Assembly: GCA_943357105.1 (NCBI GenBank)
Contig: CALRGC010000004.1
Location: 22,640-66,766 of the forward strand
DNA length: 44,127 bases
Source: Candidatus Magasanikiibacteriota bacterium
GTDB taxonomy: Bacteria; Patescibacteriota; Patescibacteriia; Magasanikbacterales; GWA2-37-8
Direction of reading: 5' to 3'
Of the stretch, positions 5,411 to 39,667 are shown piece by piece (the first letter of the stretch is position 1; each line of letters starts with the position of its first letter). A program made the translations under genes and the position numbers. Below the pieces are notes generated by a model that searched no databases, was not told the origin of the DNA, and saw only the letters and a list, made by a program, of their open reading frames with translations.

Positions 5411-5413
5411 AAA

Positions 5414-10591: not shown

Positions 10592-10593
10592 AA

Positions 10594-11373: not shown

Positions 11374-11377
11374 AATT

Positions 11378-12244: not shown

Positions 12245-12245
12245 A

Positions 12246-14471: not shown

Positions 14472-16365
14472 ATATTAGACGCTCATGATCATTATAAATG
14501 ACATTTCCAATTTCAGGTATTAATTTTGAAATTTTAAGAATTTTTACAATCACCTTATCGCGATAATCATTGGCCGATGGATTATCACTATTATACCATT
14601 CTTTCATTATTTTATCCTGAGCAATCTGAGTAAAATCAACTACAAAACTAACATTATTTTCTTTTAAGTACTGCTTTAGAGTTTCCACATCAAATTCGTT
14701 CCGAACGCTAAAATAAGCGTATAATGAAATAAAAGCATTGCCATTATTAAGAAAAGAGTCGGTGTCGTCGCTCCAAATAGGTAGAAATTTGGTATTTTTA
14801 TAATTATTATTTATATAATTGCTTAAATAATAAATATTGCCCAATCCTCTTTCAGAATAAAACTGTCCTTTGTCTGAGATTCCCAGGTCATAAGCCAGTT
14901 CAGCTTTTTTTACTTTAAAAAAATATCCGTTTTTAGCCGTAAATACAGCGCCAGCACCAATAAGTATTATCGTGATAAGTAAAATTTTTACCACTTTATT
15001 ATCAAAAATTTTTTTATAACGATAATAAATTTTACTAAGTATGTAACCAAAACATACCATTAATAACAACAAACCTACCATGGCGAATCTTTTTTGATGT
15101 GAAATTAAAAAAAACCAAATGGTAAAATAACCAAAAACAAAAAATAGAAAATATTTAAAAATTTTATCCTTATTAATCCACAAAAAACCAATCGGTAAAA
15201 ACAAGAAGGCGACCAAATTGGTTATATAATATTTATCTTTAAATAAGTTGAACGGAAACAATAAGAAATTTTTAATAGTTCGCGGTCTAAATTCACCTAT
15301 CGCGGCTTTTGACATTTCGATCTGGTCGTTGGTAAAACCTGGATGACTAAAAATAAAGGGATAAAAAGGATTTCCAAAAAATATTAAATTTTTAATATAC
15401 CAAAATCCAGAAAACAAAAAAGTAGGAATAACAAAATATAAAAAATCTTTAACAGGATTTTTAATATCTTTGTTTTCAGTAAACGATTTATAAATTATAA
15501 ATGGCAAAATTAAAATTAGCGCATACATGGAAAGATACTTTATTGATAATGCCAAACCATAGAGTAGCCCGGCTCCCATCAATAAATTTCTGTCTTTGGT
15601 CTCCGACCATATCATTATTAAAATAATGCTGGCGATTTGATACGAAGCCATGGCGGCATCAACGTAGGCACTGGTCGCATTTACAAAAATTTCATACAAA
15701 GAAAAAATTAACACAATGGATATCTGTGCACTCAATTTTCCAAATTTTTCTTTGCAAAAATAATATAAAACCATTAGACCAACCAACAGCAACTGATAGT
15801 GTACTAAATTTATTAGAGTATAGCCGGATAATATATACATTAAAGCATATAATGACTCCATTATAATTGGAGAAGTGCCATACAGATTACCTACTACACT
15901 TAAACTCATAACCCCGTTTTGAGCGATCTCTCTGGTTTCTGGTAGATGATAACCGATAGCATCTGTCTGGTATGGCGGGACAAAAGCGGAAGTAAAATAA
16001 AAGAGAAAAAGAGAAAAAATAATTAAAAAAAATAGTTTGTCCTTAAAATCAAAATTTTTCCATTTAGCAAATGCAGATTTAATTTTTATAAAAAATAACA
16101 GTATACTCTTTCTGCCTAAGATCAAAATTAGTATGATTAAAATAGAAATAATCGCATTGTTGAGTGGCGCAAAGAATGTCCAGACAACCGAGAAATATCC
16201 CAAAATACCATAACCAAGCAAAACAGAAATTCCAACCGATAATAAATTAATTTTGTTAATTATTTTAATTCTCTTTAATAAAAATAAACCCAGACAAAAG
16301 GCGGCTAGGCAAATTATTAATGAATAAAATATAGGAACAAATAGATCGTAAAAAAAATGATTCAC
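14458..16365 (-). CDS. Polytopic membrane protein, candidate GT-C fold glycosyltransferase (ArnT/PMT/YfhO-like)
   Basis: 635 aa with ~12-14 predicted TM helices over aa 1-480 and a C-terminal soluble domain. It is sandwiched between two polyprenyl-P GT2 genes. I found no WWDYG motif, so it is not an STT3/PglB-type OST. Confidence 0.45.
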   Translation of the reverse strand: MNHFFYDLFVPIFYSLIICLAAFCLGLFLLKRIKIINKINLLSVGISVLLGYGILGYFSVVWTFFAPLNNAIISILIILILILGRKSILLFFIKIKSAFAKWKNFDFKDKLFFLIIFSLFLFYFTSAFVPPYQTDAIGYHLPETREIAQNGVMSLSVVGNLYGTSPIIMESLYALMYILSGYTLINLVHYQLLLVGLMVLYYFCKEKFGKLSAQISIVLIFSLYEIFVNATSAYVDAAMASYQIASIILIMIWSETKDRNLLMGAGLLYGLALSIKYLSMYALILILPFIIYKSFTENKDIKNPVKDFLYFVIPTFLFSGFWYIKNLIFFGNPFYPFIFSHPGFTNDQIEMSKAAIGEFRPRTIKNFLLFPFNLFKDKYYITNLVAFLFLPIGFLWINKDKIFKYFLFFVFGYFTIWFFLISHQKRFAMVGLLLLMVCFGYILSKIYYRYKKIFDNKVVKILLITIILIGAGAVFTAKNGYFFKVKKAELAYDLGISDKGQFYSERGLGNIYYLSNYINNNYKNTKFLPIWSDDTDSFLNNGNAFISLYAYFSVRNEFDVETLKQYLKENNVSFVVDFTQIAQDKIMKEWYNSDNPSANDYRDKVIVKILKISKLIPEIGNVIYNDHERLIYAVK

Positions 16366-16371
16366 ACGTTT

Positions 16372-17064
16372 TTATCTAAAAATATTGAATCTAATAATTG
16401 ACCAGATGGCGGAGAAACCATCCTTCCAACCAATTTTCTTACCTTCAGCATAAGTGCGACCACTATAGGACACCCCGACTTCAAAAATACGAAAATGTTT
16501 AACTCTAGCGGTTATTTCCGGCTCAATACCAAAACGTTGTGAAACCAAATCGTCTTTGATAGAATCAACAACTTTTCGGTTAAATAATTTATAACATGTT
16601 TCCATGTCCGTTAAATTCAAATTAGTAAAGATATTAGAAATAGTCGTTAAAAAATTATTACCTAAATAATGCCAATAATACAACACTCGATGCGCGCCGA
16701 CTCCTAAAAATCTTGAACCATATACCACGTCCGCCTTGCCCGCCAATATTGGGGCTAAGAGTTGGTTATATTCACTAGGGTCGTATTCCATATCCGCGTC
16801 CTGAATAATCGCAAAGTCACCAATAGAAGATTTAAAACCGGTGGCTACGGCTCCGCCTTTACCTTTATTTTTTTCATGTAAAATTACCTTGACTCCGTCT
16901 AAATGACTTATGATATCTCTGGTACCATCAGTTGAGCCATCGTCAACAATAATAATTTCCTTACCAATCCCATCAACGAGCGTGATTGATTTCACCAAGT
17001 CTACTATTTTTTGTATAGTATTTTTTTCGTTATAAACCGGAATAATTATTGATAGAGTGGACAT
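16372..17064 (-). CDS. Polyprenyl-phosphate glycosyltransferase (GT2, DPM1/GtrB/CsbB-like)
   Basis: LSIIIPVYNEKNTI..IVDDGSTDGT..IIQDADMEYDP, 230 aa. Confidence 0.75.
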   Translation of the reverse strand: MSTLSIIIPVYNEKNTIQKIVDLVKSITLVDGIGKEIIIVDDGSTDGTRDIISHLDGVKVILHEKNKGKGGAVATGFKSSIGDFAIIQDADMEYDPSEYNQLLAPILAGKADVVYGSRFLGVGAHRVLYYWHYLGNNFLTTISNIFTNLNLTDMETCYKLFNRKVVDSIKDDLVSQRFGIEPEITARVKHFRIFEVGVSYSGRTYAEGKKIGWKDGFSAIWSIIRFNIFR

Positions 17065-20194: not shown

Positions 20195-21100
20195 TTATAG
20201 CGATTCTGTTTCTTTAGATATAACATTAAATATTGGCATTCCTTTAATCTTTTCTAAACGTTCACTGCCTGACAAAAACGATAGATCTCCCTGCTCATTT
20301 CGGCTGTCCCTAAACTTAGAAACAACATAACCTTCTTTGGCGGAAAGCGGCTTTAGATTGCCAATTTTGTCTTTTCTGACAAAGTAAGCGTTATTCCCAG
20401 CGCTATTACTACCAATAAAATTATAGCCCTTGATTTCAGCCAATGCACACAAAGCTGGGAGCGAAGTCCCCCAGTATAGATTACTGAAGTGCGCTTTAGT
20501 TCGGTTAAAATCAGGACGATAAGGGACGGTAACAGTTCGTTCATTACCAAAAATACTGTTATATTCAACAATAACTAATATTGGACTAGTGACGGTAATT
20601 GCTTCCCAAACCCAATAGTCATTACCATCTATATCTATACTCAACAAACCTATCTCACCAGCAAAGCCGTTATCTTTAAGCAACGCGTTAATATTTTCCT
20701 TGGAAATAAAAGCGGCTACCGCTTGCAGGTCATAGCGCCATACGATTTCATCATCTTTAATACTGGCAACATTTTTTACCGATCCGTCCATGACCAAACC
20801 CGACCAATTGTTGTTCATTAACAAAAAACGAGTGTTGGCTTCCAAATAATTTTCCACCCCAAACTCAACAAAACGCTTATCCGTGATGTCTAATTGCTGG
20901 AGAAAATATTGAATAATTCCGTCATCACCAAACTGTGAAAACACTTTAAACTCAACTTCAGCCAAATTTTGTATATTCTTTTTGGTAGCCAGTTGCTGAC
21001 TAAGCAGTCTGCCCGTGAGCAAAACATTCGCCAGCAATAACTGGCGAATTTCGTTCATGAAGCGACCTAGACGTTGTTTAAGTTTATTCAGAAAAAACAT
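20195..21100 (-). CDS. Uncharacterised protein with FkbM-like methyltransferase-fold features
   Basis: FSQFGDDGIIQYFL..RFVEFGV and LLSIDIDGNDYWVWE parallel the YAQEGEDLVL..FFVDIGA and LNIDVEGLDLAVLE motifs of the clear FkbM-family gene at 34852-35538. Confidence 0.4.
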   Translation of the reverse strand: MFFLNKLKQRLGRFMNEIRQLLLANVLLTGRLLSQQLATKKNIQNLAEVEFKVFSQFGDDGIIQYFLQQLDITDKRFVEFGVENYLEANTRFLLMNNNWSGLVMDGSVKNVASIKDDEIVWRYDLQAVAAFISKENINALLKDNGFAGEIGLLSIDIDGNDYWVWEAITVTSPILVIVEYNSIFGNERTVTVPYRPDFNRTKAHFSNLYWGTSLPALCALAEIKGYNFIGSNSAGNNAYFVRKDKIGNLKPLSAKEGYVVSKFRDSRNEQGDLSFLSGSERLEKIKGMPIFNVISKETESL

Positions 21101-21127
21101 AGCTCAATAGTACCATTATATCTCCAT

Positions 21128-21157
21128 ATTTTAGCAAATTAAGGCCTTTACTGTCAA
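21128..21157 (-). promoter_or_regulatory. Candidate internal sigma70-type promoter
   Basis: The minus strand reads TTGACA (rc of 21152-21157), an 18-nt spacer, then TAAAAT (rc of 21128-21133). It lies in the 102-nt gap between the ACP gene and the 301-aa gene. Confidence 0.3.
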
Positions 21158-21202
21158 TGTAATAATCCTCCAATGTATAGGCTTTAAACCACCTGTTCTT
21201 CA

Positions 21203-21439
21203 TTATTCTACCATCGACACGCCGTGTTTTTTTAAGGCTTCTTTAATATCGCGAAAATCTTTAATCTCGACTACTTCTTCAATATTAAATTTAACACCAT
21301 ATTCTTTTTCCAAAGCCGAAATCAACATCAGTCCATTAAATGAATCCCAGGCCGCGACGTTTTCCGGCGAGCTCGCGTCGTTAATACTGTCTTCAGAAAT
21401 TTCCAAAATTGATGCTAAAACAGCTTTCGGTGATCGCAT
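21203..21439 (-). CDS. Acyl/peptidyl carrier protein
   Basis: 78 aa and acidic, with AAWDSFNGLMLISALEKEYGV carrying the DS(L/F) phosphopantetheine-attachment serine. Confidence 0.8.
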   Translation of the reverse strand: MRSPKAVLASILEISEDSINDASSPENVAAWDSFNGLMLISALEKEYGVKFNIEEVVEIKDFRDIKEALKKHGVSMVE

Positions 21440-21443
21440 ATAA

Positions 21444-22304
21444 TTAATTGTTTAAAAAAATTTTCAGACACTCAAGGTATTGGCCCGGTTCTTCCAGGTG
21501 GGGCAGATGGGAGCTTTTTTCAAATATTTGCAATTTGGAACCAGCAATTTGAGCTTGATAGAAAGCTACATCTTCTGGACTAGCACCATCAAAGCGACCG
21601 CCAGTAAACAGAGTCGGTAGTGTAAGCTCTTTTAGTCGTTCGCTCCGATCATATTCAGCCAGATTTCCCGAAACCGTGTATTCATTCGGTCCCCACATCC
21701 GCAAGTAGACCTCGCGATTAAAACCATGCTTAGCGGCCTTAATGAGACTCGGTTCCTGTTGCATCCTGCATTCATAGGTTTTATAGTAAAGAGTCCTTGC
21801 AATTTTATATTCCCGGACTTCGCCCTTACCATTTTCCTCATATTCCCGAATTAAAATTCCATAATTATTAGGCAACTCCGCAAGATAGCGGTCCGTGGTT
21901 TCTTTCCACCGTTTTAGGCTAAGGCATGGACTAGCAAAGATTGCCCTTTTTATTTCTGAAGGCTGGGTAAGCAAATATTCTACGGCCAACATTGCGCCCC
22001 AAGAATGGCCAAACAGATCGATATTTTTCAAATTCAATTTTTCTATTACCGCAACCAGTTCTTGAACAAAATATTCAATCGTACAAAATTTCGGATCGCG
22101 AGTATGGCTGGATCTACCGCACCCGATTTGATCAAAAAAAACCACTTGATGCTTATCGGAGAGCGCCTCTAAATTCCATAAGTAATCGCTAGGATACCCC
22201 GGTCCGCCGTGAACAATTAAAAGTGGCGGAAGGTCGGATGAACCAACGGTCTTGTACCACAGCGATCCCCAAGGCAGTTGGATAAAACCTTCTTTATTAG
22301 TCAT
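21444..22304 (-). CDS. Alpha/beta hydrolase of the prolyl-iminopeptidase type (possible acyl/aminoacyl transferase or thioesterase)
   Basis: LLIVHGGPGYPS (HGGPG oxyanion motif), LFGHSWGAM (GxSxG nucleophile elbow), 286 aa. Confidence 0.7.
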   Translation of the reverse strand: MTNKEGFIQLPWGSLWYKTVGSSDLPPLLIVHGGPGYPSDYLWNLEALSDKHQVVFFDQIGCGRSSHTRDPKFCTIEYFVQELVAVIEKLNLKNIDLFGHSWGAMLAVEYLLTQPSEIKRAIFASPCLSLKRWKETTDRYLAELPNNYGILIREYEENGKGEVREYKIARTLYYKTYECRMQQEPSLIKAAKHGFNREVYLRMWGPNEYTVSGNLAEYDRSERLKELTLPTLFTGGRFDGASPEDVAFYQAQIAGSKLQIFEKSSHLPHLEEPGQYLECLKIFLNN

Positions 22305-23355
22305 GGCTCACCTTGATTATTTCCTGAAATAAATCAAAAGCTTTCCCATCAGAAACTGGTCGGGTTGGAGATTTCATTAAAAACGGAGAGGCTTTCCAAG
22401 CATCAGATTGCCTATTGGAATCCATTAAAAACTTTGCAACCCGTATAGCATCTACCAGTACACCCGCGCCATTTACACTAATTTCATCTTCAATCACCGA
22501 ATGGATCGTTATTGGCACGCGACCAAACATTTCACCTTCAATATCAATCGTCACTCGCTTGTGGCCGGAAGGTACGCCAGTATAGATAAAATTGACCTTA
22601 GGTTTAACATCGTCTTCTGTCAAGAACTGTGTCAAAGCTTCTCTTTTTGATTTTTCTTTGCTGGCCGCCCGATCCAATAAATTAAAATGGTCGGCATTTC
22701 CACCACGATTTTCCTGCTCTGATTTCAATACCCGGATACCGCGGATCTTAAGAAATTCTAACAGAATACGATTCAACATGGTCGCGCCTAACTGGCTCTT
22801 AATATCATCGCCCAAAAGCACCAAACCTTTAGCTTCAAAACGTTGAGTCCAGTCGGACAAAGTGGCCAATGGCGTCGGGATGCAATTAATAAAACCACAA
22901 CCAGCATCCAATGCGGCTTGAGCATATGCCAGTGTGGCTTGTTCACCTCCGGAAGGTACTAAATTAACTACCAGATCAGCCTTTGATTCGCGAAGCACAG
23001 TAGCAACATCGGTGGCTGGCGTAGTACTTTCCTGAACAAAAGATTCTTTCATCGCCTTACTCACGCTGTCCAAAGTCGGTCCGCGATGCACGACAGCGTC
23101 ATATGTCAAACTTTCAGTGATTTGTTTAGTGATATTTGGTTTCACGGAAATGGCTTCGTGAAGTTTTTTACCGACTTTGCGTTCATCAACATCAAAAGCC
23201 GCTACAAAATTAATATCTTGGACCTGATATGGGCCAATAAAAGGATTCATAAGACCGCGATGCTCATTGGGGTTTTTCGTATAAAAAGCCACACCTTCTA
23301 CTAGAGCCTTAGTAAAGCTTCCTACACCGACAATCGCTACGTTAATTTTTTTCAT
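22297..23355 (-). CDS. ino1: myo-Inositol-1-phosphate synthase family enzyme (inositol-3-phosphate synthase homologue)
   Basis: VAIVGVGSFTKALVEGV, GPYQVQDINFVAAFDVDERKVG, HRGPTLD, LLGDDIKSQLGATMLNR, GGNADHF and LMKSP are collinear with bacterial Ino1 as I recall it (M. tuberculosis). Confidence 0.75.
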   Translation of the reverse strand: MKKINVAIVGVGSFTKALVEGVAFYTKNPNEHRGLMNPFIGPYQVQDINFVAAFDVDERKVGKKLHEAISVKPNITKQITESLTYDAVVHRGPTLDSVSKAMKESFVQESTTPATDVATVLRESKADLVVNLVPSGGEQATLAYAQAALDAGCGFINCIPTPLATLSDWTQRFEAKGLVLLGDDIKSQLGATMLNRILLEFLKIRGIRVLKSEQENRGGNADHFNLLDRAASKEKSKREALTQFLTEDDVKPKVNFIYTGVPSGHKRVTIDIEGEMFGRVPITIHSVIEDEISVNGAGVLVDAIRVAKFLMDSNRQSDAWKASPFLMKSPTRPVSDGKAFDLFQEIIKVSHD

Positions 23356-23356
23356 A

Positions 23357-25093
23357 CTAATTTTCTTCTATTATCGGGTTCATTTCCGCGTCCAGTGTGG
23401 AAAAATCCCCGAGGGGTGAATTAGATTCTTGTGATCTTAGAATGCGTCTCATAATCTTCCCGCTTTTAGTCTTTGGCAATTTATCTACGAATTCTATCTC
23501 CCGAGGTGCCACATGACTGGCCAATTTATCCCTGACATAAGCAGTTAGCTCGGTTTTTAACTGATCTGTTCCCGATACGCCAGGCTTTAGCATGATAAAA
23601 GCTTTTATTATGGATCCAAACAGTTGGTCTGGTTTTCCAATTACTGCTGCTTCCGCCACTTTAGGGTGCGCTACCAAAAAACTTTCTATTTCAAATGGGC
23701 TTATCCTTTCCCCAGCACTCTTGATTATGTCGTCTTCACGACCCTGAAACCAAAAATAGCCATCGGCATCCTGATAGGCGGAATCACCGGAAATATACCA
23801 ACCATTCTGAAAATATTCCTCAAATTTTTTTTGATTACCCCATACGGTTTTCATAAGTCCCGGCCACGGTGTTTTAACGGCCAGCCGGCCAATGGTTCCA
23901 ACTGGAAGCTCCTCACCTTGCTCGCTTAGAATAGCCGCCCGGATACCGGGCAGAGGCTTACCCATTGAACCTTTTCTTATCGGCAAGCATCGATAATTAT
24001 TAATTAATTGATGGCCGTTTTCAGTCATGTACCAGGAATCATGGATCGGGATGCTTAAATTGTTTTCAGTCCAATCAATCAGACTAGGATTGAGCGGCTC
24101 ACCAGCACTGACTATATGTCGTAGCTTAGGCAAATGCTCCCGATCAAATGGTACGCCATAGTAACGCAATAGTCGAAAAGCTGTAGGCGTACTGTACCAG
24201 ACGCTTATTCCCATCCGCGACATAAACTTAATCCAATCCAAAGGATGAAAAGGTCCTTCATATAGATGGGCAGCAACGCCTAAAAGCAATGGAGCAAAAA
24301 AATTATAGATCATACCAGTCACCCAGCCTGGATCGGCAGTATTCCAGTAATTATCTTCCGGGTGCAGATCCAACACATATTTGGCTGTTAGTAAATGGCC
24401 AATCATAGCACGTGAAGAAAGCAATATCCCTTTTGGTTTGCCAGTTGATCCAGAAGTATAATGTATCACAAAGGGTGTTTCCAAATCGCCAAACTGCGTG
24501 GCGGCCGGATTTGGTTGGCCCTGATAGCAATCGCTTAACAAATGAACTGATAATCCCGGCAAGGAAATTGAAGAGTCAATCAAAATATTTGTTACGGAAA
24601 GACCGCTGTCAAAGGGAACATTTTTTATCAGATTGCTCGTAACATAAAGCCAGGTGGCACCACAGTCATTAAGACGATCTACGATTGCTTCCCGGCCAAA
24701 AGCCGAAAATAATGGCACAGCAACAGCGCCACACTTAATCGCCGCTAATAGCACGACTGCGTAATCAAGAGACTTGGCGGCGTAAAGTCCAAAACGATCA
24801 CCGGCTTTTAACCCTCTAGAACGTAGCGACGTCGCCAAGATGGATGTTAAATCAGCCAATTCCCTGAAAGTAATACTGACCACACGGCCATCTGTCTTTT
24901 GAGAAATAAAGGCTGGTTTGTCACCATTGCCTTTTTGTACCTGATAGTCGGTAACTTCATAAGCATAGTTAACTTTACCTGTAGAGTTGAAGGAAAATTC
25001 TTTATGCCAATGATCCCAATTAAAATCAAACTTAGCTGATTCATAATCAGTTAGGTTTGGCGAAAGGTTAAGAATATCTGTGTTGGGGTACAT
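23357..25093 (-). CDS. AMP-forming acyl-CoA/acyl-carrier-protein ligase (ANL superfamily, acetyl-CoA-synthetase-like)
   Basis: YTSGSTGKPKG (A3), YISGDSAY..GREDDIIKSAGERISPFEIE (A8) and LPKTKSGKIMRR (A10 lysine). Confidence 0.85.
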   Translation of the reverse strand: MYPNTDILNLSPNLTDYESAKFDFNWDHWHKEFSFNSTGKVNYAYEVTDYQVQKGNGDKPAFISQKTDGRVVSITFRELADLTSILATSLRSRGLKAGDRFGLYAAKSLDYAVVLLAAIKCGAVAVPLFSAFGREAIVDRLNDCGATWLYVTSNLIKNVPFDSGLSVTNILIDSSISLPGLSVHLLSDCYQGQPNPAATQFGDLETPFVIHYTSGSTGKPKGILLSSRAMIGHLLTAKYVLDLHPEDNYWNTADPGWVTGMIYNFFAPLLLGVAAHLYEGPFHPLDWIKFMSRMGISVWYSTPTAFRLLRYYGVPFDREHLPKLRHIVSAGEPLNPSLIDWTENNLSIPIHDSWYMTENGHQLINNYRCLPIRKGSMGKPLPGIRAAILSEQGEELPVGTIGRLAVKTPWPGLMKTVWGNQKKFEEYFQNGWYISGDSAYQDADGYFWFQGREDDIIKSAGERISPFEIESFLVAHPKVAEAAVIGKPDQLFGSIIKAFIMLKPGVSGTDQLKTELTAYVRDKLASHVAPREIEFVDKLPKTKSGKIMRRILRSQESNSPLGDFSTLDAEMNPIIEEN

Positions 25094-25094
25094 A

Positions 25095-25466
25095 TTACTT
25101 TTTAATCAAATATCCCTCCTTAAAAATTACCAAAGCGGCGGCGGAACTAGGACTATGAGCCAAACTAACCAAAACTTTAAGCTTTGGGACTCTGACAAAA
25201 CGCAGTTTTGGCTGACCGCTTTTACGGGTTAAAATTTCAATATCAGTATAATCGAAGCCACGCATACCGCCCATCGCCTTTATAAAGGCCTCCTTGGCGG
25301 CAAATCGCGCGGCCAGATGTTCGGCAGGTTTGACTTTGCCAAAACAATATTTTAACTCTTTAGAGGTAAAAACTCTCTTCAAAAAATTATCATTTTTACT
25401 ATGGTAAAATTTTTGAAAACGCGCTATATCTTCAATATCAATTCCGCATCTTAAATTCTCTATCAT
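25095..25466 (-). CDS. acpS: Holo-ACP synthase (AcpS-type 4'-phosphopantetheinyl transferase)
   Basis: CGIDIEDIARF and AARFAAKEAFIKA motifs. The start at 25466 (MIENLRCGIDIE) gives a typical 123-aa AcpS. The track ORF extends to 25562, adding a 32-aa hydrophobic N-terminus that overlaps the upstream gene by 8 nt. Confidence 0.75.
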   Translation of the reverse strand: MIENLRCGIDIEDIARFQKFYHSKNDNFLKRVFTSKELKYCFGKVKPAEHLAARFAAKEAFIKAMGGMRGFDYTDIEILTRKSGQPKLRFVRVPKLKVLVSLAHSPSSAAALVIFKEGYLIKK

Positions 25467-25485
25467 ATTTAGACCAACAAAGGCT

Positions 25486-25514
25486 ATAATACCATATACT
25501 ATGGGGTTTAGCAA
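25486..25514 (-). promoter_or_regulatory. Candidate promoter with extended -10, upstream of the short AcpS start
   Basis: The minus strand reads TTGCTA (rc of 25509-25514), a 17-nt spacer, then TGgTATTAT (-10 is the rc of 25486-25491). It is only meaningful if acpS starts at 25466. Confidence 0.25.
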
Positions 25515-25554
25515 TATAAAACTGAGCAAAAGAGTAAGCGCCTTGGAGCTAACT

Positions 25555-26151
25555 TTAGCCAATTATGGCCACATCAACGGCTGGTCTTATTTTTTTAATG
25601 ATTACCGCCGGATTGCCGGCAACCACCGTAAACGGCTCCACATTAGAAGCAACAAAGCTCCCGGCCGCAATTATTGCGCCCTGACCAATATGTACACCTT
25701 TTAAAATTATGGAATTTGCGCCAATCAATACATCATCATCAATAACGATTTCACGTTCTCGCAAATTAATGGTGCGAGGCTGCCCGTGTTCAATAATCTC
25801 TTTGAAATGATTATGCCGTTCAACTATATCTAGGGGATGTGTATCATTGTCAAAAATATTACAATTATGAGAAATAAGGACTCTATTACCTATGCTAATC
25901 TTTTTTGCTGACCAAATATAGGTATTCCTTCCGACAAAACAAAAATCACCTATTTTTATTTCTCCTCCGTGACCAAATACAAGCAACTCGCCTTTTATGT
26001 GGGTGTTATTACCTATTTTTATCTTCTCTTTTTTATTCAGATTATTTATTATTGAAGCCGTCTCGTACAGCACACTCTTTTCACCTAAAAGATAATCTTT
26101 CTCTTTAAATGGTTTAAAAAATAAATTGTAAACAATTCCTTTAATATTCAT
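25555..26151 (-). CDS. Left-handed beta-helix (hexapeptide-repeat) acyl/acetyltransferase
   Basis: [89 protein letters not shown]. An AGGTGG SD-like sequence lies ~9 nt upstream of the ATG. Confidence 0.8.
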
Positions 26152-26215: not shown

Positions 26216-26938
26216 TTATAGCTGTTGTAAGGCTTTGTTGGCATCATCTAAAAACTGGACAACAGTTTCTTTTGTTCGAGCTGACAACAGACATTTCGCG
26301 ATTACCTCCGGAGGTATAGTAAGAATATGCGCACCGCTCTTACTCCACAGATCCACATTCTCCGGACTGCGCACGGAACCAACAATTATTTCAATATTTT
26401 TATAATTATGAAAATCAAGCCACTGTCTCACTTCTTTTAGCACTTTTTGCGCTTGCTCCACCCCGTGCTCCTCGGAAATTCTACCCGCAAAAATACTTAT
26501 AAAATGCGTTTTTTTAACTTGACTTTTTGATAAACCGGCATTAATAGCCTTGGCAGCCAAAATAGCCTGATTAAAGGTCATCATGGCGGTAACGTTGACC
26601 GAAATACCTTCAGAAACCAGCTGATAAATAGCCGGCAAAAGCGAGCTACCGTTTCTATCAGTGATGGTAACTTTTACTGAAATATTTTCGGCCCAAGCAT
26701 TATACTTTCTAGCCTCAACAAGAATTTCGTCAATCTTATCTGTTGTCACTTCCACACTTAATGGACGAGGTGCAATCAAAGCGGCGATCTCAAGCGCTCT
26801 TTTTTTTATTCCTTCTTCACCACCTTTAACGCCAGATTTTAAACAAATACTTGGATTGGTAGTAACACCATCACAAAGCCCCCAACTTATATATTTTTCA
26901 ACTTCTCCGACTTCGGCACTATCGATAAATATTTTCAT
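26216..26938 (-). CDS. Transaldolase / fructose-6-phosphate aldolase family (class I aldolase, TalC/FSA type)
   Basis: MKIFIDSAEVGEVEKYISWGLCDGVTTNPS and ISVKVT (Schiff-base Lys position), 240 aa. Confidence 0.75.
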   Translation of the reverse strand: MKIFIDSAEVGEVEKYISWGLCDGVTTNPSICLKSGVKGGEEGIKKRALEIAALIAPRPLSVEVTTDKIDEILVEARKYNAWAENISVKVTITDRNGSSLLPAIYQLVSEGISVNVTAMMTFNQAILAAKAINAGLSKSQVKKTHFISIFAGRISEEHGVEQAQKVLKEVRQWLDFHNYKNIEIIVGSVRSPENVDLWSKSGAHILTIPPEVIAKCLLSARTKETVVQFLDDANKALQQL

Positions 26939-26952
26939 ATTATTTATAATAA

Positions 26953-27468
26953 TTAAATAAAATCAAACATTTCCCTAATATTAGTAATTACATAATCTGC
27001 CAACTCCACAGCATCATTATTGTATTCACGTTGCAACAGAATTGTTTTGCAACCAGCGGCTTTACCTGCCAACATATCGCGTCTTGTATCTCCTAATAGA
27101 TACGACTTAGTTAAATCAATACCATTTTTTTCGGCTGATTTTATGATTAGACCCGGTTCTGGTTTACGACAACTGCATTGATCAAGATCGTCATGCGGGC
27201 AAAGATTAATCTCATCAACCAGCAACTCCTTTTCTAACAAAGCGTGCATCTCGTCCAATATTTCTACAGCCATGAGACCGCGCGCGATATCCGGTTGGTT
27301 AGTAACGATAATATTTTTAAATTCAAGCTCTCTTGTTCTTTGAAAATGTTCGCTAATTTCTTGCGTTAACTTAAAATCTATAAATTTTCTTGGACTCAAC
27401 GCCTTATTGTTAACAATCGTAACCTCATTAATAACTCCATCACGATCCCAGAAGATGGCCTTTGTCAT
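26953..27468 (-). CDS. gmhB: D-glycero-D-manno-heptose 1,7-bisphosphate phosphatase (HAD, GmhB type)
   Basis: AIFWDRDGVINE (DxD nucleophile motif), the zinc-finger insert CPHDDLDQCSCRKP (CxHx6CxC RKP) and LLGDTRRD. Confidence 0.75.
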   Translation of the reverse strand: MTKAIFWDRDGVINEVTIVNNKALSPRKFIDFKLTQEISEHFQRTRELEFKNIIVTNQPDIARGLMAVEILDEMHALLEKELLVDEINLCPHDDLDQCSCRKPEPGLIIKSAEKNGIDLTKSYLLGDTRRDMLAGKAAGCKTILLQREYNNDAVELADYVITNIREMFDFI

Positions 27469-28034
27469 AACTGCTTTAGCAAATTTACTAACAAATGATT
27501 GACTAATAATTGAAAATCCTCAGTATAAGGAGTTATCATAGATTCTTCGACTGTTGGGACTACCAAGCAAGCATCGGCCATTTGAGCGGTAACACCGGTG
27601 TTTCTACCAACAACCCCAAGAATTTTTGCTCCCACAACTTTCGCGTACTCTATTGCCTGCACTAAATTTTTAGAGACGGTTTGTGTGCCTCCGCCAACCG
27701 AAAAAATAAATAGACAATCTTTGGCGGTAAAATGATGCATTTCTAGTTGGCGTTTGAAAACTGAGTCCCAACCTTCATCATTCGCCAAAGCACTAAACAA
27801 TGCTACGTTATCGGTAAGACAAAAAGTAGAGATATTGGCGATTTTATTAAAATCATTAGTAGCGTGGGAAGCCGAGGCTGCCCCTCCACCTATCCCTAAA
27901 AAAAATACTCTTCCTTGTGATTCCCGTGTGATTAAAAGAACATCAGCCATTTTTTCTAAATTCTCACGACTACAACTTTCAGCTATTTGAGCTGATCTTT
28001 TTAAATATAGATCAATAAAGTTATGCTTGTCCAT
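27465..28034 (-). CDS. gmhA: SIS-domain sedoheptulose-7-phosphate isomerase (GmhA-like)
   Basis: 189-aa single SIS domain with FFLGIGGGAASASHATNDF, FIFSVGGGT and GAKILGVVG. ATGA overlap with gmhB. Confidence 0.7.
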   Translation of the reverse strand: MDKHNFIDLYLKRSAQIAESCSRENLEKMADVLLITRESQGRVFFLGIGGGAASASHATNDFNKIANISTFCLTDNVALFSALANDEGWDSVFKRQLEMHHFTAKDCLFIFSVGGGTQTVSKNLVQAIEYAKVVGAKILGVVGRNTGVTAQMADACLVVPTVEESMITPYTEDFQLLVNHLLVNLLKQL

Positions 28035-28039
28035 AAATG

Positions 28040-29041
28040 CTAAAAATTAATAATTTTTTTATTTTTAGATGAAGAATACAAACCAGCTATTAATTTATTG
28101 GCCATCATACCATCAAAACCGTTGCCATTCGGCTGAATCTTTTTGGCAATAGATGATCTAAAATTCTTCCATTCTTCTTCCCATGATGTATCACGATCAT
28201 AAAAAAAATCTTGCTCCGCAGGTCGGGTGCCAAGTTCTTTTCTCCTACCAATTTTCAACGTTTCTCTGCCGTAACTGCCTCCTTTTCCTTCAATATTAAT
28301 ATATCCTCTCTTACCAAAAATGTCAATCATAAATCTATTTTTCCATTGGGTGGCACTGACGTGCATTTGAGCGACCTTACCGTCAAATGTACGAAGGGTA
28401 CAGAAAGCATTATCATCCAATTTTGATTTGTCCCAAAACATATTTTCACAGAACGCCATACCTTCTTTAAACTCCCCTAAAAACCAACGAAAAAGGTCGA
28501 GTATATGAACGCCTTGGTCAAGCAATTCACCTCCGCCAGAAAATTTTTCATTCATTCTCCATTCCAAATCATAGCCTTTTCTTCCACCGTGGCCATAAAC
28601 TGCGCGCATGTACATCAATTCACCGATCGCCCCTTTGGCTACTAAATCGTGCGCTTTTCGCACTGCTAAATGAAAGCGATGATTAAAACCAACTTTTAAC
28701 ATTACCTTATTTTTTTGGGCGTATGTGTAAATTTTTTTTGCTTCAAGATAATTAATTCCTAACGGTTTTTCACACAAAATATTTTTCTTATAACGTATCG
28801 CTTCCAAACACAGTGGCGCGGAAACATTACTAACAGTAGCGATAATAACAGCCTCAATATTTTTATCTTTAAAAATATCCGTGCTACTTTTGGCTATAGC
28901 ACATCCGACTTTTTGCGCCAAAGCAGTGCTTCTCACTAGATCGGTATCAAAAATGGACACAATCCTATCTTTTTTAAATTTCATAATAACTTCTGCCCGT
29001 TTAGCACCAATAAACCCCGCTCCGATAATACCAACGTTCAT
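28040..29041 (-). CDS. Gfo/Idh/MocA-family NAD(P)-dependent oxidoreductase
   Basis: MNVGIIGAGFIGAKRA Rossmann N-terminus and the ILCEKPL motif, 333 aa. Confidence 0.75.
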   Translation of the reverse strand: MNVGIIGAGFIGAKRAEVIMKFKKDRIVSIFDTDLVRSTALAQKVGCAIAKSSTDIFKDKNIEAVIIATVSNVSAPLCLEAIRYKKNILCEKPLGINYLEAKKIYTYAQKNKVMLKVGFNHRFHLAVRKAHDLVAKGAIGELMYMRAVYGHGGRKGYDLEWRMNEKFSGGGELLDQGVHILDLFRWFLGEFKEGMAFCENMFWDKSKLDDNAFCTLRTFDGKVAQMHVSATQWKNRFMIDIFGKRGYINIEGKGGSYGRETLKIGRRKELGTRPAEQDFFYDRDTSWEEEWKNFRSSIAKKIQPNGNGFDGMMANKLIAGLYSSSKNKKIINF

Positions 29042-29044
29042 ATA

Positions 29045-29902
29045 TTACTTAATTATTTCTTGAAAATACTTATTGTCGATACGACGCAATGTAAGTTCCG
29101 AAGATTTTTTTAAACGTTCCAGTTCAACTTCATTCCATTCATTCCAACTATCCCATTTGGCGCTAATTAACTTACCAGTAAGATTAAGAGAGCGATCACT
29201 AACCAAAAACGCAGTCAAGTCAGCCGCCAATTGTGGCGAATCTCCACCATCTTTTTTTTGATTAACAATTTTTTCGTAAAATTTTTCTCCGACCATTTTG
29301 GCGCCAGCCTCTAACGATTCGTCAAGTAGTCTAGTATTCACTGCGCCTGGTGCGATGGCGTTAATTTGAATATTGTAAGATTTATATTCCTCAGCAATTG
29401 TTTCGGTGAAACGAACGACTGCCGCCTTGGAAGTGGCGTAACTGGAAAAATTGGGGAACGTATTGACCGCACCGCCGCCGGAAAAATTAATTATTTTACC
29501 GGCTTTATTTTTAAGCATTATTGGTAAGACAGCATGGGTACAGTGCGCTGTTCCCACCAGATTGATCTGGATAGTTTTAGTCCAAAGACATATATCGTTA
29601 GTATCAAATTGACCAATCGGCCCATATACACCGGCGGCATTGACCAAAATATCAATAGTGTGAAATTTTTCTATAACAAATTGAACAACTTTTTTTACTT
29701 GTTCATAGTCCGAAACATCAGCCTCTTTTATTACTATAGTTAGTCCGACCGCGTTTAGCTCATTTTGAAGAATTTTTAACTCATCAAGCGATCGAGAAAT
29801 AGCCACGACTCGACAGCCTTGTCTAGCCAGCGTTTCCACAATAGTCCGACCGATCCCCTTGCTGCCCCCCGTGATAAGGGCTACTTTGTCTTGTAATATC
29901 AT
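29045..29902 (-). CDS. Classical short-chain dehydrogenase/reductase (FabG-like SDR)
   Basis: KVALITGGSKGIGR, NAAG and SSYATSKAAV (YxxxK). The probable start is 29902 (MILQDKVALITGG); the track start at 29953 runs into the upstream gene. Confidence 0.75.
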   Translation of the reverse strand: MILQDKVALITGGSKGIGRTIVETLARQGCRVVAISRSLDELKILQNELNAVGLTIVIKEADVSDYEQVKKVVQFVIEKFHTIDILVNAAGVYGPIGQFDTNDICLWTKTIQINLVGTAHCTHAVLPIMLKNKAGKIINFSGGGAVNTFPNFSSYATSKAAVVRFTETIAEEYKSYNIQINAIAPGAVNTRLLDESLEAGAKMVGEKFYEKIVNQKKDGGDSPQLAADLTAFLVSDRSLNLTGKLISAKWDSWNEWNEVELERLKKSSELTLRRIDNKYFQEIIK

Positions 29903-29912
29903 ACAATTGAAA

Positions 29913-31217
29913 TTATTTAGCGTTAAAGCCAATACCATAATATCTAAAACCATTCTTCTTTATACCTTCTGAATCCAAAAAATTCTTACAGTCTACAACC
30001 ACTGCCTTCGGTGCTATTTTTTTTATTTTCGCGAAATCAAGTTCTTTAAACTCAGGCCAATCCGTGACAAGCAAAATTGCCACTACGTCAGCTACTGCAC
30101 TGTAAGCATCAGTGGCGAGCTGTATATTTTCCAAAATTTTCAAAGGAGAAGTTATTTTCGGATCAAACGCCTTGACCCGAGCGCCGGCTCGCAATAATTT
30201 CTTAGCCAACTCGACAGACATAGAACGACGCAAGGTGCTAGTTCCAGGTTTATATGTGAGTCCAAGAATGGCGATTTTTTTATTTTTTAGAGAGCCTACG
30301 CTATTTTTTATTTTTTCAATAACTTTTTTCTGACGAGCTTGATTTACCTCTCGAACAGCATTTATTAAATGCATTTTTACTGAACGTAATTTTCCTAAAT
30401 TACTTAAAATAGCGATATCTCGACCAAGTGTTCCACCCGCATAACCCATACCAGGACTTAGAAAAGCCTGTGCGCCGATACGCCGATCGGCTTTGAGTCC
30501 AGCGGCCACACGACGCACGTCCGCTCCGGTAACCTCACACATGTCAGCAATTTCATTGATGAAACTAATTGACATAGCCAAAAAAGCATTCGTAGCGTGT
30601 TTAACCATTTCCGCACTTTCAAGGTCCATATAAAATTTCGGAGCATCAATTACTTTATAAAAATCTTCCACCGTCCTCTGCACCGTTACATCCTCCAGAC
30701 CAATAATTACTCGATCTGGTTCCAAAAATTTTTTGATCGCCTGGCCGAGCATAATATTTTCCGGATTATACACAATCGTGCATTTCATTGACGCTCGAAG
30801 CTTTAGCATAAACTGCTTTAAAAATCGACAACTACCGATAGGCACCTGGCTCATGATAATAATTATACAATCATCAGAGGCAAACTGAGCGATTTTTTCA
30901 CAGGCTTTGTAGATCACCGTCATATCAGGCTCATCATGACTATTGACCGGAGTATCAAAAGCGATAACAATAAACTTCTTTTTTTCTAAAGCACTTTTGA
31001 AGTCAGTAGTAAAATTGAGTCTCCCCTTTGCCTTATTTTTCTTAATAAGATCCGCTAAACCAGGTTCAAATAATGGAGGCAAGTTTGATTCTAAATCATG
31101 CATTATTTTTTTATCAAAATCAATACCAGTTACCAGATAACCTTTGTCAGCTAAACCGGCGGAAACGGTACACCCCAAATGCCATAAACCGATAACAGCT
31201 ACTTTAGTTTCGCTCAT
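29913..31217 (-). CDS. UDP-glucose/GDP-mannose dehydrogenase family protein with the catalytic Cys replaced by Thr
   Basis: KVAVIGLWHLGC, NPENIMLGQA and EMVKHATNAFLA (Lys/Asn retained). FLSPGMGYAGGTLGRDIAIL aligns with the canonical FL.PG.GFGGSCFPKD, placing Thr263 (codon ACA, rc of 30429-30431) at the nucleophile position. Confidence 0.8.
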   Translation of the reverse strand: MSETKVAVIGLWHLGCTVSAGLADKGYLVTGIDFDKKIMHDLESNLPPLFEPGLADLIKKNKAKGRLNFTTDFKSALEKKKFIVIAFDTPVNSHDEPDMTVIYKACEKIAQFASDDCIIIIMSQVPIGSCRFLKQFMLKLRASMKCTIVYNPENIMLGQAIKKFLEPDRVIIGLEDVTVQRTVEDFYKVIDAPKFYMDLESAEMVKHATNAFLAMSISFINEIADMCEVTGADVRRVAAGLKADRRIGAQAFLSPGMGYAGGTLGRDIAILSNLGKLRSVKMHLINAVREVNQARQKKVIEKIKNSVGSLKNKKIAILGLTYKPGTSTLRRSMSVELAKKLLRAGARVKAFDPKITSPLKILENIQLATDAYSAVADVVAILLVTDWPEFKELDFAKIKKIAPKAVVVDCKNFLDSEGIKKNGFRYYGIGFNAK

Positions 31218-31237
31218 ATACTAAAATTAATATAATT

Positions 31238-32224
31238 TTAAAAATTAACAATCACTTTTGACCCCTCTTCCTCGAACCTGAAAGGCATTTCTACCAAACC
31301 ATTCTGTTTCATCGCGTTGCGAATACCATTTTTGTCACCTGGACAATAAAAAACTAAAAAACCACCACCACCCGCTCCCATAATCTTACCGCCTAAAGCA
31401 CCGTGCTCTTTAGCTAACGCATATAATTTGTCAATTTTTGGATCAGACATTTTGGTTGACATTGTCTTTTTTATTTGCCAATGATCATCCATAAGTCTAC
31501 CAAAATCATCCAACTCGCCTTTTTCAATGGCGTTTTTAATTTCTATTCCAATTTCTTTAATCTTTAACAATGATTGTGTCACGTCGCTCTGTTTATTTTC
31601 AGCGGCTGTACTTTGTTCACCAAGAATATTCATCGCATCGCGAGAGATACCGGTATAAAAAATAACTAACCTATTTTGCAACTTCTCTATTGTATCTGGC
31701 GCGATCTGCGCGTTTGATACTTCTACTCGTCCATTACGATCAATATTCATAATGGTAAAACCACCAAATGCCGCCAGATACTGATCCTGCTTCCCCACCG
31801 GTTTGTGCAATAGATCAATCTCAATATGACAAGCTTCCTCGGCTAATTCTTGAACGCTTAAACCCTTGTGTGTTAATGCTTGTAGACCCTTTAAAAGACC
31901 AACGAGATATGAGCCAGACGAACCCATTCCAGTACCTTCCGGCACATCGGCCATTGAGGCAATCTCAATACTGTCTTTAATACCATAATATTCCAAAGCA
32001 GCGCGGGCAAGCTGATGTTGTACCTGCGTCACATTTTCTACCATCTCCGTACGTGAATATTTAAGGCGTATAAGCGAATCAACCACTGGTCGGTTTATAG
32101 TAATATACATATACTTATCAATCGCCACACTAAACAAAAAACCGCCGTGCTGTTTGTAAAAAGCAGGTAAGTCAGTACCTCCACCACCCAGAGGAATTCT
32201 AAAAGGTGTTCGCGTTAAAATCAT
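31238..32224 (-). CDS. hddA: GHMP-family sugar kinase, D-glycero-alpha-D-manno-heptose 7-phosphate kinase-like
   Basis: MILTRTPFRIPLGGGGTDLPAFY, PEGTGMGSSGS (GHMP motif II) and GAGGGGFLVFY. Confidence 0.7.
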   Translation of the reverse strand: MILTRTPFRIPLGGGGTDLPAFYKQHGGFLFSVAIDKYMYITINRPVVDSLIRLKYSRTEMVENVTQVQHQLARAALEYYGIKDSIEIASMADVPEGTGMGSSGSYLVGLLKGLQALTHKGLSVQELAEEACHIEIDLLHKPVGKQDQYLAAFGGFTIMNIDRNGRVEVSNAQIAPDTIEKLQNRLVIFYTGISRDAMNILGEQSTAAENKQSDVTQSLLKIKEIGIEIKNAIEKGELDDFGRLMDDHWQIKKTMSTKMSDPKIDKLYALAKEHGALGGKIMGAGGGGFLVFYCPGDKNGIRNAMKQNGLVEMPFRFEEEGSKVIVNF

Positions 32225-32247
32225 AATATTAAATTTTATAGATAAAA

Positions 32248-39663: not shown

Positions 39664-39667
39664 ACAA

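Follow-up and report, generated by a model that had tools for sequence, protein, structure and literature searches.

A recurrent, apparently undescribed carrier-protein cassette predicted to acylate glycans, and its frequent pairing with an inositol-phosphate synthase homologue in Patescibacteria

What might a polysaccharide locus do with its own acyl carrier protein (ACP), an AcpS-type 4ʹ-phosphopantetheinyl transferase and an ANL ligase, all packed around a homologue of myo-inositol-1-phosphate synthase (MIPS)? The question is raised by a 44,127-nucleotide (nt) stretch of contig CALRGC010000004.1 from a Candidatus Magasanikiibacteriota bacterium (GenBank assembly GCA_943357105.1), which is referred to in its full length as the window. 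Few systems are known in which surface polymers are decorated by means of a carrier protein. The main example is Dlt, which governs charge, antibiotic resistance and host interaction. The ligase and carrier of the window belong to a real, recurrent and apparently undescribed cassette, probably a variant of carrier-protein-dependent glycan acylation, marked by a carrier of the WDS type and by a ligase that derives from AcsA and has a remodelled pocket.

A five-gene core in a glycan locus

A Pfam scan of its open reading frames (ORFs) indicates that the window is a single long minus-strand glycan locus of about 45 genes. Six of these bear directly on the question, with lengths given in amino acids (aa):

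21203-21439, minus strand: acyl carrier protein, 78 aa (Pfam PP-binding)
21444-22304, minus strand: α/β-hydrolase of the proline-iminopeptidase (PIP) family, 286 aa (TIGR01250)
22297-23355, minus strand: MIPS homologue, 352 aa (Pfam Inos-1-P_synth)
23357-25093, minus strand: AcsA-derived ANL ligase, 578 aa (Pfam AMP-binding and AMP-binding_C)
25095-25466, minus strand: AcpS-type 4ʹ-phosphopantetheinyl transferase, 123 aa (Pfam ACPS, TIGR00516)
25555-26151, minus strand: LbH (hexapeptide-repeat) acyltransferase, 198 aa (Hexapep)

A preliminary description of this DNA had reported these six minus-strand genes. All are present in the ORF list, the motifs quoted for them are there, and the six family assignments were confirmed by Pfam and NCBIfam profile searches. 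The claim of a self-contained carrier-protein system likewise holds, with ligase, ACP and dedicated AcpS all present and their families confirmed.

One gene start needed revision. As first listed (25095-25562), the AcpS reading frame begins at a TTG codon and carries about 32 extra hydrophobic residues that are found in no homologue. The Pfam match does not begin until residue 39, the identical contig has an independent gene call of 123 aa, and homologues are 111 to 124 aa long; the ATG at 25466 is most likely the start rather than the TTG at 25562. With this start, the tightly packed unit comprises five genes (AcpS, ligase, MIPS, α/β-hydrolase and ACP; 21203-25466). Within this core, 1 nt separates AcpS from the ligase and the ligase from MIPS, MIPS overlaps the hydrolase by 8 nt, and 4 nt lie between the hydrolase and ACP; the following gene is 102 nt away. 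The spacing of 1 to 8 nt originally ascribed to all six genes therefore applies to the five-gene core and fails at the LbH/AcpS junction, which is an 88-nt gap and not an 8-nt overlap. Tight packing by itself is ordinary for operons, and the module rises above chance because its synteny is conserved in unrelated contigs.

A ligase clade with a remodelled acid pocket

The ligase matches the AMP-binding and AMP-binding_C domains of Pfam at 224 and 90 bits. Its best NCBIfam model, PRK04319 ("acetate--CoA ligase"), scores 654.8 bits, under the cutoff of 729, and TIGR02188 scores 413.9 bits, under the cutoff of 724.95. In a homology search, 38 clusters made up its clade, with 61-74% identity and 826-1025 bits, before the scores fell to 591 bits and 49% identity with named AcsA enzymes of Bacillales.

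Pocket residues were assigned in the numbering of Salmonella enterica/Escherichia coli Acs, using PDB alignments together with the actual E. coli Acs sequence. Trp414, the wall of the acetate pocket, corresponds to Tyr355 of the window ligase; the residue is Tyr in all 38 clade members versus Trp in 82 of 82 AcsA sequences. Val386 corresponds to Ala330, which is Ala throughout the clade (38 of 38) versus Val in 79 of 82 AcsA sequences. Additionally, Thr418 and Gly420 of Acs have become Asn and His in the clade (Asn359 and His361), residues Met261, Asn264 and Asn365 are also clade-invariant, and Val310 and Thr311 of Acs are retained. In total, 31 positions are fixed differently in clade ligases and AcsA, and no acidic pocket residue has been gained among these 31. 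The ANL core motifs are all kept, with Lys546 in the place of the catalytic Lys609 of Acs and Arg463 in that of Arg526. Where the preliminary description had allowed for a housekeeping acetyl-CoA synthetase with an acetate-sized pocket, the ligase thus lies outside housekeeping AcsA, in a separate clade with the two pocket exchanges in every member.

In Acs enzymes, this tryptophan restricts the substrate to acetate, and an enlarged pocket admits larger acids. From the clade signature one would thus expect an acid that is slightly larger than acetate, polar and not an amino acid, and the substrate is most plausibly a short polar carboxylic acid such as a C2-C4 hydroxy- or oxo-acid. Furthermore, the signature does not vary between genomic contexts, which are interleaved in a star-like ligase tree. 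This pattern suggests that the clade ligase probably activates the same acid in all loci and that its variable neighbours do not set its specificity. The tree also rejected the notion that the MIPS-linked ligases form a lineage of their own.

One further candidate feature was dropped. Asn158 of the clade, an Arg in AcsA, had been considered as the lost counterpart of the CoA-binding Arg191/Arg194 of Acs, and the loop that holds these residues falls in an alignment gap. As a sequence diagnostic of the cassette, the ligase motif IHDSWYMTENGHQLIN adjoining a WDS-type carrier can be used.

The carrier protein and its phosphopantetheinyl transferase

The carrier gene product matches PP-binding at 24.9 bits against a cutoff of 20.8, and its predicted phosphopantetheine site is Ser33 within "AAWDSFNG". 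When 13 carrier ORFs were aligned, the attachment serine of each one coincided with E. coli AcpP Ser36, and the 12 carriers paired with a clade ligase shared an invariant WDS in the context "SP(E/D)N..(S/A/T)WDS(F/L/Y)(N/S)". A homology search from the 78-aa carrier returned at least five matches. AcpS matches Pfam ACPS at 65 bits and exceeds the cutoffs of both TIGR00516 (63.9 versus 59.8) and TIGR00556 (80.2 versus 45.35).

One of the related loci, L045, contains a second pair at 4646-6706, in which AcpS and a 497-aa ANL ligase accompany an 83-aa carrier that has LDS instead of WDS. This pair lies upstream of a PEP-mutase/ICL-family gene, an ApbA gene and the clade ligase with its own carrier. 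Judged by its gene content, L045 may carry out two carrier-dependent acylations within one glycan locus.

Recurrence of the cassette

Synteny was compared in 15 independent loci that hold a clade ligase, the window included; most relatives of the cassette come from Patescibacteria/Saccharibacteria genomes. In 12 of the 15, a carrier ORF of 74-102 aa is found no more than 3 kb from the ligase, in most cases directly downstream of it or divergent; of the three loci that have none, two are short contigs of about 3 kb. Eight of the loci also contain AcpS. MIPS directly adjoins the ligase in seven, in four gene orders or orientations:

Arrangement 1, AcpS-ligase-MIPS-hydrolase-ACP: the window
Arrangement 2, ligase-hydrolase-MIPS-AcpS-ACP-MBOAT: L002 and L040
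Arrangement 3, DegT-MIPS-ligase-ACP-methyltransferase: L039 and L052 (a 3-kb contig in which only DegT, MIPS and ligase are visible)
Arrangement 4, MaoC-ACP on one strand and the ligase on the other, then MIPS-AcpS: L049 and L057

Elsewhere the ligase has the following neighbours:

ApbA/PanE-type reductase: L043, L045 and L050
SDR and MaoC: L042
MaoC: L046
No recognisable gene: L044, L048 and L051

The preliminary description had made the module depend on synteny in relatives, and such synteny was found, since ligase, MIPS and ACP or AcpS recur together in at least six further independent loci, with all four genes in five of the six (the exception being L052). Two further co-locations were deduced from contigs of identical length, an approach validated on P0150/P0110. 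The invariant unit is the ligase and the carrier, often with AcpS, and MIPS is their commonest but non-obligatory partner. The idea of a cassette built around MIPS is thus partly upheld: MIPS is a frequent companion of the ligase and ACP, but it is not required, and ApbA or SDR/MaoC are found in other loci.

The tailoring enzymes that flank the carrier in other loci include MaoC, SDR, ApbA, TylF O-methyltransferase and one MaoC-TylF fusion. Because these neighbours act on thioesters or hydroxy-acids, they point to a short hydroxy- or oxo-acyl group open to reduction, hydration or O-methylation. Aminotransferases stand beside MIPS in L039, L052 and L057, the last of which also has a GMC oxidoreductase and a GNAT protein, and their presence is compatible with an N-acylated aminocyclitol in these three loci. 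Full-text literature searches found no description of this gene combination, which agrees with the initial impression that it is not a described pathway.

The MIPS homologue

The MIPS homologue matches PF01658 (Inos-1-P_synth) at 58 bits. Its best structural match is Mycobacterium tuberculosis Ino1 (1GR0), with 226 bits over residues 3-344, above the five-membered-cyclitol synthase Ari2 (6K96; 152 bits). All catalytic positions that were mapped from yeast MIPS are conserved (in yeast numbering, D320, K322, N350, N354, D356, K369, K373, K412, D438 and the C-terminal Lys), the assignment of K412 depending on the 1GR0 alignment. Among them is the Lys of "GDDIKS", which is missing from "GDDLAS" of Ari2. 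The score against TIGR03450, a model specific to actinobacteria, is 252 bits and under its cutoff of 638.

Homology searches place the protein in a very large family of about 350 aa, with relatives at 60-77% identity in Patescibacteria, DPANN archaea and some metagenome-assembled genomes of Gammaproteobacteria. Most of these relatives stand alone: among 31 genome loci anchored on MIPS, just two also encode ligase, carrier and AcpS. The pairing thus belongs specifically to the ligase side and does not characterise MIPS in general. Module-linked and stand-alone MIPS are interleaved in the tree, which rejects a specialised subfamily, and the protein appears from sequence to be an ordinary MIPS recruited into these loci rather than a neofunctionalised paralogue.

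Two other MIPS-bearing loci came to light. At 2080-5988 of L041, a stand-alone relative (72% identity) has as neighbours an APH-type kinase, a PIG-L-family deacetylase and a GT1 glycosyltransferase. This set, from an uncultured organism, looks like the first part of a GlcN-inositol (mycothiol/GPI-like) pathway. L037 comes from Photorhabdus asymbiotica DSM 15149, and at 9989-16443 it groups a distantly related MIPS-like gene (38% identity) with genes for a SurE nucleotidase, a carbamoyltransferase, an archaeal-type AdoMet synthetase and a DegT aminotransferase; the group is probably a natural-product cluster for a cyclitol or carbocyclic nucleoside and has no relation to the cassette.

The α/β-hydrolase and the transferases

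The hydrolase scores 255 bits against TIGR01250 (cutoff 167.65) and shows a weak match to the Pfam Thioesterase domain. Its nearest structures are 7A6G and tricorn factor F1 (1MTZ). The Ser-Asp-His triad is intact, with the Ser in "GHSWG", and aligns with S105, D244 and H271 of F1. Glu213 and Glu245 of F1 are the glutamate pair that binds the free N-terminus of the substrate; the first is retained in the window hydrolase ("GPNEY") and the second is replaced by Gly.

Among the 15 loci, this PIP-type hydrolase is seen in the window only. A non-orthologous protein of 186-189 aa (PF06821, Ser_hydrolase) occupies the equivalent place in L002 and L040, also overlapping MIPS, and no α/β-hydrolase is found in the four other MIPS-linked loci of the seven. 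The combination of a PIP-type hydrolase with a cyclitol synthase, to which the preliminary description had drawn attention, is accordingly not what the family conserves. An α/β-hydrolase overlapping MIPS nevertheless occurs in MIPS-linked loci only (the window, L002 and L040), and this restriction is suggestive of an association. Its origin there from two non-orthologous families suggests selection for hydrolase activity beside MIPS. The enzyme is a candidate acyl-ACP:acceptor acyltransferase, or else an editing or release thioesterase.

The LbH protein was considered as an acyl-ACP-dependent transferase of the LpxA/LpxD type, and this was not supported. Its best NCBIfam matches are DapD_Ac, WbbJ, WcaF and Vat, its top NCBIfam and PDB matches overall are DapH, WbbJ, WcaF, GAT/MAT, Vat and CatB, and the best 60 PDB matches listed are all CoA-dependent acetyltransferases. 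LpxA and LpxD gave weak partial NCBIfam matches and do not appear among those 60. With acetyl-CoA-dependent O-acetyltransferases as its nearest relatives, LbH is more likely an independent enzyme of that kind than the final transferase of the carrier pathway. Its membership in the module, assumed at the outset, is doubtful given these relatives and the 88 nt that separate it from the start of AcpS. LbH genes do adjoin or lie near the clade ligase in L051 and L046.

Other transferase families accompany the cassette elsewhere. In L002 and L040, the two closest relatives of the window, an MBOAT gene directly follows ACP, and GNAT genes occur near the carrier in other loci, including one between ACP and AcpS in L044. 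Among window ORFs of at least 110 aa, the Pfam scan yielded no match to MBOAT or DltD; the 325-aa ORF that follows the L002 MBOAT has no Pfam match and is not recognisable as a DltD homologue. The earlier statement that the set has no MBOAT/DltB-DltD pair is thus correct for these window ORFs and does not extend to the family, in which L002 and L040 have an MBOAT.

Comparison with known systems

One parallel is with Dlt. As in that system, an ANL ligase is predicted here to load a small dedicated carrier (about 80 aa), whose thioester would serve as donor when a cell-envelope polymer is decorated. The window carrier has the phosphopantetheine-attachment serine (that of WDS, aligned with AcpP Ser36), and in L002 and L040 the MBOAT gene directly after the carrier stands in loci with TarI/TarJ-like or TagF-like genes. 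However, the window ligase is AcsA-derived and not a DltA: its best models are acetate and short-chain CoA ligases, and it has no amine-binding acidic residue. The window also lacks MBOAT and a recognisable DltD, the cassette brings its own AcpS with MIPS and an α/β-hydrolase embedded in it, and other members have GNAT or LbH partners together with thioester-tailoring enzymes.

In Vibrio cholerae O1, rfbK-O includes carrier, ligase-like and acetyltransferase-like (hexapeptide) genes for the tetronate N-acyl group of perosamine. The window shares with this O-antigen locus a carrier, a ligase and a hexapeptide gene, by which an unusual acyl substituent is built and attached in V. cholerae; its MIPS, AcpS and α/β-hydrolase have no known counterpart there. 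The earlier claim that rfbM/N-type reductases are missing was borne out, as the Pfam scan of window ORFs of at least 110 aa found no Fe-ADH-like or LuxC-type domain. The cassette would function like Dlt and the V. cholerae O1 tetronate genes, with ligase and carrier delivering an acyl substituent to a surface polymer, but it is a member of neither group: its ligase lacks the hallmarks of DltA as well as the profile score and pocket of AcsA, and the window has neither MBOAT/DltD nor tetronate-type reductases.

As an enzyme, the ligase most resembles Bacillus AcsA (PDB 9G79; PRK04319), its best structural and profile match. The two share fold, length, ANL motifs, the catalytic Lys, the sequence "GWVTG" and about 48% identity. 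They differ in that the window ligase falls below the equivalog cutoff in a clade of its own, with Tyr for Trp414, Ala for Val386 and the extra invariant Asn, His and Asn. Moreover, its gene adjoins a carrier inside glycan loci, whereas AcsA is a housekeeping gene.

A dedicated "acyl-CoA synthetase-like" ANL enzyme paired genetically with a specialised ACP is also described for bacterial sphingolipids, in which the pair feeds serine palmitoyltransferase and the ACP rather than CoA is proposed to be acylated (PMC9386255). In that system, the acyl group is a long-chain fatty acyl, the product is a lipid, and the setting is not a glycan locus and does not include MIPS. Finally, the MIPS homologue aligns over its full length with M. 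tuberculosis Ino1, sharing the NAD-binding region and the catalytic Lys, Asp and Asn; in the window it is translationally coupled to a carrier cassette and not to inositol-lipid or mycothiol genes.

A proposed mechanism

The five-gene core is read here, with a confidence slightly on the favourable side, as one case of a recurrent mix-and-match glycan-acylation cassette in loci for envelope polysaccharides or teichoic-acid-type polymers. AcpS, by virtue of its family, would convert the 78-aa apo-carrier into the holo form. The ligase would then adenylate a short polar non-acetate acid (for example glycolate, lactate, glycerate, 3-hydroxybutyrate or acetoacetate) and pass it in thioester linkage to the holo-carrier instead of CoA; a non-acetate acid and carrier loading are proposed because the pocket remodelling is invariant and carrier adjacency is near-obligate. 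MIPS, with its catalytic residues intact, would convert glucose-6-phosphate to inositol phosphate. These three steps are based on family membership, conserved residues and synteny.

In the last step, the carrier would give up its acyl group to an acceptor that becomes part of the exported glycan. Transfer in the window is probably cytoplasmic because no MBOAT is present; the most likely agent would be the α/β-hydrolase-fold enzyme acting on a MIPS-derived cyclitol or cyclitol phosphate, with LbH acting on a sugar as the alternative. In L002 and L040, the MBOAT after the carrier would indicate a Dlt-like transmembrane transfer, and other loci may use GNAT proteins. The mechanism is weakest where it assigns this acceptor and the transferase.

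Several observations weigh against this proposal. The choice of ACP over CoA as acceptor is inferred solely from synteny; the ligase retains every ANL core motif and the catalytic Lys; and the CoA-contact loop of Acs (R191-P197) is an alignment gap in all Bacillus-type enzymes. The LbH and GNAT partners come from families whose usual donor is acyl-CoA. In 8 of the 15 loci the ligase is found with an identical pocket but no MIPS, which therefore cannot be necessary for ligase function; and the module-linked MIPS, not being a separate lineage, fits the mere supply of a building block. The window, L002 and L040 ligases form one subclade of the ligase tree, and the association between hydrolase and MIPS consequently rests on few independent events.

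Weighing the alternatives

The cassette and MIPS might be functionally independent. MIPS would then supply inositol or inositol phosphate as a polymer building block or lipid anchor, the acyl-ACP would decorate a sugar (for instance an amino sugar, a heptose or a nonulosonic acid) by way of LbH, GNAT or MBOAT, and the hydrolase would edit mis-acylated carriers in the manner of a type-II thioesterase. This account, the main rival, is unlikely, although it must be taken seriously. It is favoured by the constancy of the ligase pocket with and without MIPS, the interleaving of module and stand-alone MIPS, an inositol monophosphatase gene downstream in L002, and the dispensability of the hydrolase in four of seven MIPS-linked loci. 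The weak Thioesterase-domain match of the window hydrolase also agrees with it, as do the small hot-dog (MaoC-like) proteins that adjoin the carrier in L046, L049 and L057, which could be analogous thioesterases. However, direct adjacency of MIPS and ligase, often with overlapping coding ends and in four arrangements, exceeds what a shared polymer would require, and an α/β-hydrolase is found solely where MIPS occurs and overlaps it. MIPS might instead itself tailor the acid or the carrier-bound acyl group as an NAD-dependent oxidoreductase or cyclase; in favour of this, the slot beside the ligase is filled alternately by MIPS, ApbA or SDR, each of which has an NAD(P)-binding oxidoreductase fold. 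Such a role is scarcely credible for a protein with 60-77% identity to stand-alone homologues, fully conserved MIPS catalytic and phosphate-handling positions and no separate subfamily; moreover, L049 and L057 contain both MaoC and MIPS.

Other explanations concern the acid and its acceptor. A plain short-chain acyl-CoA synthetase could provide acetyl- or propionyl-CoA to the LbH and GNAT acetyltransferases while ACP and AcpS serve another process. The closest characterised relatives of the ligase are indeed AcsA enzymes, its motifs and catalytic Lys are those of the family, and LbH and GNAT proteins typically use acyl-CoA. This is nonetheless improbable in view of the score under the NCBIfam equivalog cutoff, the separate clade with its invariant non-acetate pocket, and the adjacent carrier in 12 of 15 loci, most of which have no other enzyme able to load it. 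To our knowledge, these organisms generally lack fatty-acid synthesis, which would leave ACP and AcpS with no other obvious role. Dlt-like aminoacylation, in which the ligase would load D-Ala, Gly or Pro and the PIP-type hydrolase would handle the free-amine aminoacyl group to yield an ester on a polyol-phosphate or inositol polymer, draws on the MBOAT gene after the carrier in L002 and L040, on the TarI/TarJ-like or TagF-like genes of those loci, and on the PIP family of the hydrolase with one of the two amine-binding glutamates of F1. It was rejected as the leading idea and is very improbable, since no acidic pocket residue for an α-ammonium group was gained among the 31 clade-specific positions and F1 Glu245 is Gly in the window hydrolase. 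Furthermore, the ligase is AcsA-like and not DltA-like, DltD was recognised neither among window ORFs of at least 110 aa nor in the ORF after the L002 MBOAT, and the MaoC, SDR, ApbA and O-methyltransferase partners indicate hydroxy- or oxo-acyl chemistry.

Surrounding genes of the locus

The Pfam scan identified the following genes outside the module, all within the glycan locus:

Elsewhere in the glycan locus: Wzt ABC-transporter ATPase
Glycan locus: many glycosyltransferases (GT2, GT4, GT10 and GT11)
Glycan locus: two UDP-sugar dehydrogenases, several epimerases and one C-methyltransferase
26216-32964: complete heptose-type nucleotide-sugar pathway (transaldolase/FSA, SIS isomerase, GHMP kinase, HAD phosphatase and nucleotidyltransferase)

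The heptose-type genes lie directly upstream of the module, and the same interval also holds Gfo/Idh/MocA and SDR oxidoreductases and a UDP-sugar dehydrogenase. A set of TAL, SIS, (HAD) and NTP-transferase genes is likewise found beside the ligase-ACP cassette in L039 and L045, adjoining TagF-like polymerases. The G+C content at 21001-25000, where the carrier module lies, is 41-44%, versus 26-39% across most of the remaining locus; strong protein conservation of ligase and MIPS could account for this, or a separate acquisition of the module.

A 301-aa ORF (20195-21100) follows the carrier gene. No significant Pfam match and no PDB relatives were found for it, the best Pfam signal being a faint FkbM (E 0.04), and a single-sequence AlphaFold model was unusable (pLDDT 35.7). 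An exhaustive search recovered 6,790 representatives at E<=0.001, and in 9 of 24 sampled cases the family forms the C-terminal part of GT2-bearing proteins of 600-890 aa. The ORF had been considered as the missing transferase. Because its family is so large and so frequently fused to GT2, it was instead placed outside the module, and the family appears to be an uncharacterised glycan-tailoring domain.

A near-consensus σ70-like promoter site (TTGACA, an 18-nt spacer, TAAAAT and TG; 11/12) lies at 21128-21157, in the gap between ACP and the 301-aa ORF, and a weaker one (9/12) at 25486-25514 lies in the LbH/AcpS gap, just upstream of ATG 25466. In a scan of the region for promoters and terminators, overall counts did not exceed those in shuffled sequence, and the two intergenic sites are not taken as evidence. 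In other polysaccharide systems, SGNH domains serve outside the cytoplasm as O-acyltransferases or esterases, and a 480-aa ORF (38260-39702) that overlaps the 3ʹ end of Wzt has a faint N-terminal GDSL/SGNH lipase-like signal (E 0.008). The window has no recognisable Wzm permease. A 1172-aa ORF (248-3766), which lies at the downstream end, matches the lamin-tail domain (LTD) barely over threshold (34.5 versus 34.3 bits) and is possibly a large surface protein.

Implications

The cassette probably attaches a small acyl group to a cell-surface glycan or cyclitol. It is distinct and recurrent, and it pairs with at least three transferase families (MBOAT, GNAT and LbH) and several tailoring enzymes. 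As such, it offers a testable entry into the nearly unexplored surface chemistry of candidate-phyla-radiation bacteria and a natural example of an acetyl-CoA synthetase scaffold retuned for a new acid and probably for a new acceptor. It also bears on the question of which donor serves MBOAT proteins in the O-acylation of polysaccharides.

Most intriguing is the repeated coupling of the ligase-carrier cassette to an inositol-phosphate synthase. A bolder and doubtful extension is that in a lineage of AcsA-derived ligases a small hydroxy- or oxo-acid has replaced acetate as the substrate and a private carrier has replaced CoA as the acceptor, and that in about half of the cases this lineage works with MIPS to produce an O- or N-acylated (amino)cyclitol, with which Patescibacteria would decorate their envelope glycans or teichoic-acid-like polymers. 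If true, this reading would add a hitherto unknown class to the substituents of glycans, and it would give ACP and AcpS their first assigned function in organisms thought to be without fatty-acid synthesis.

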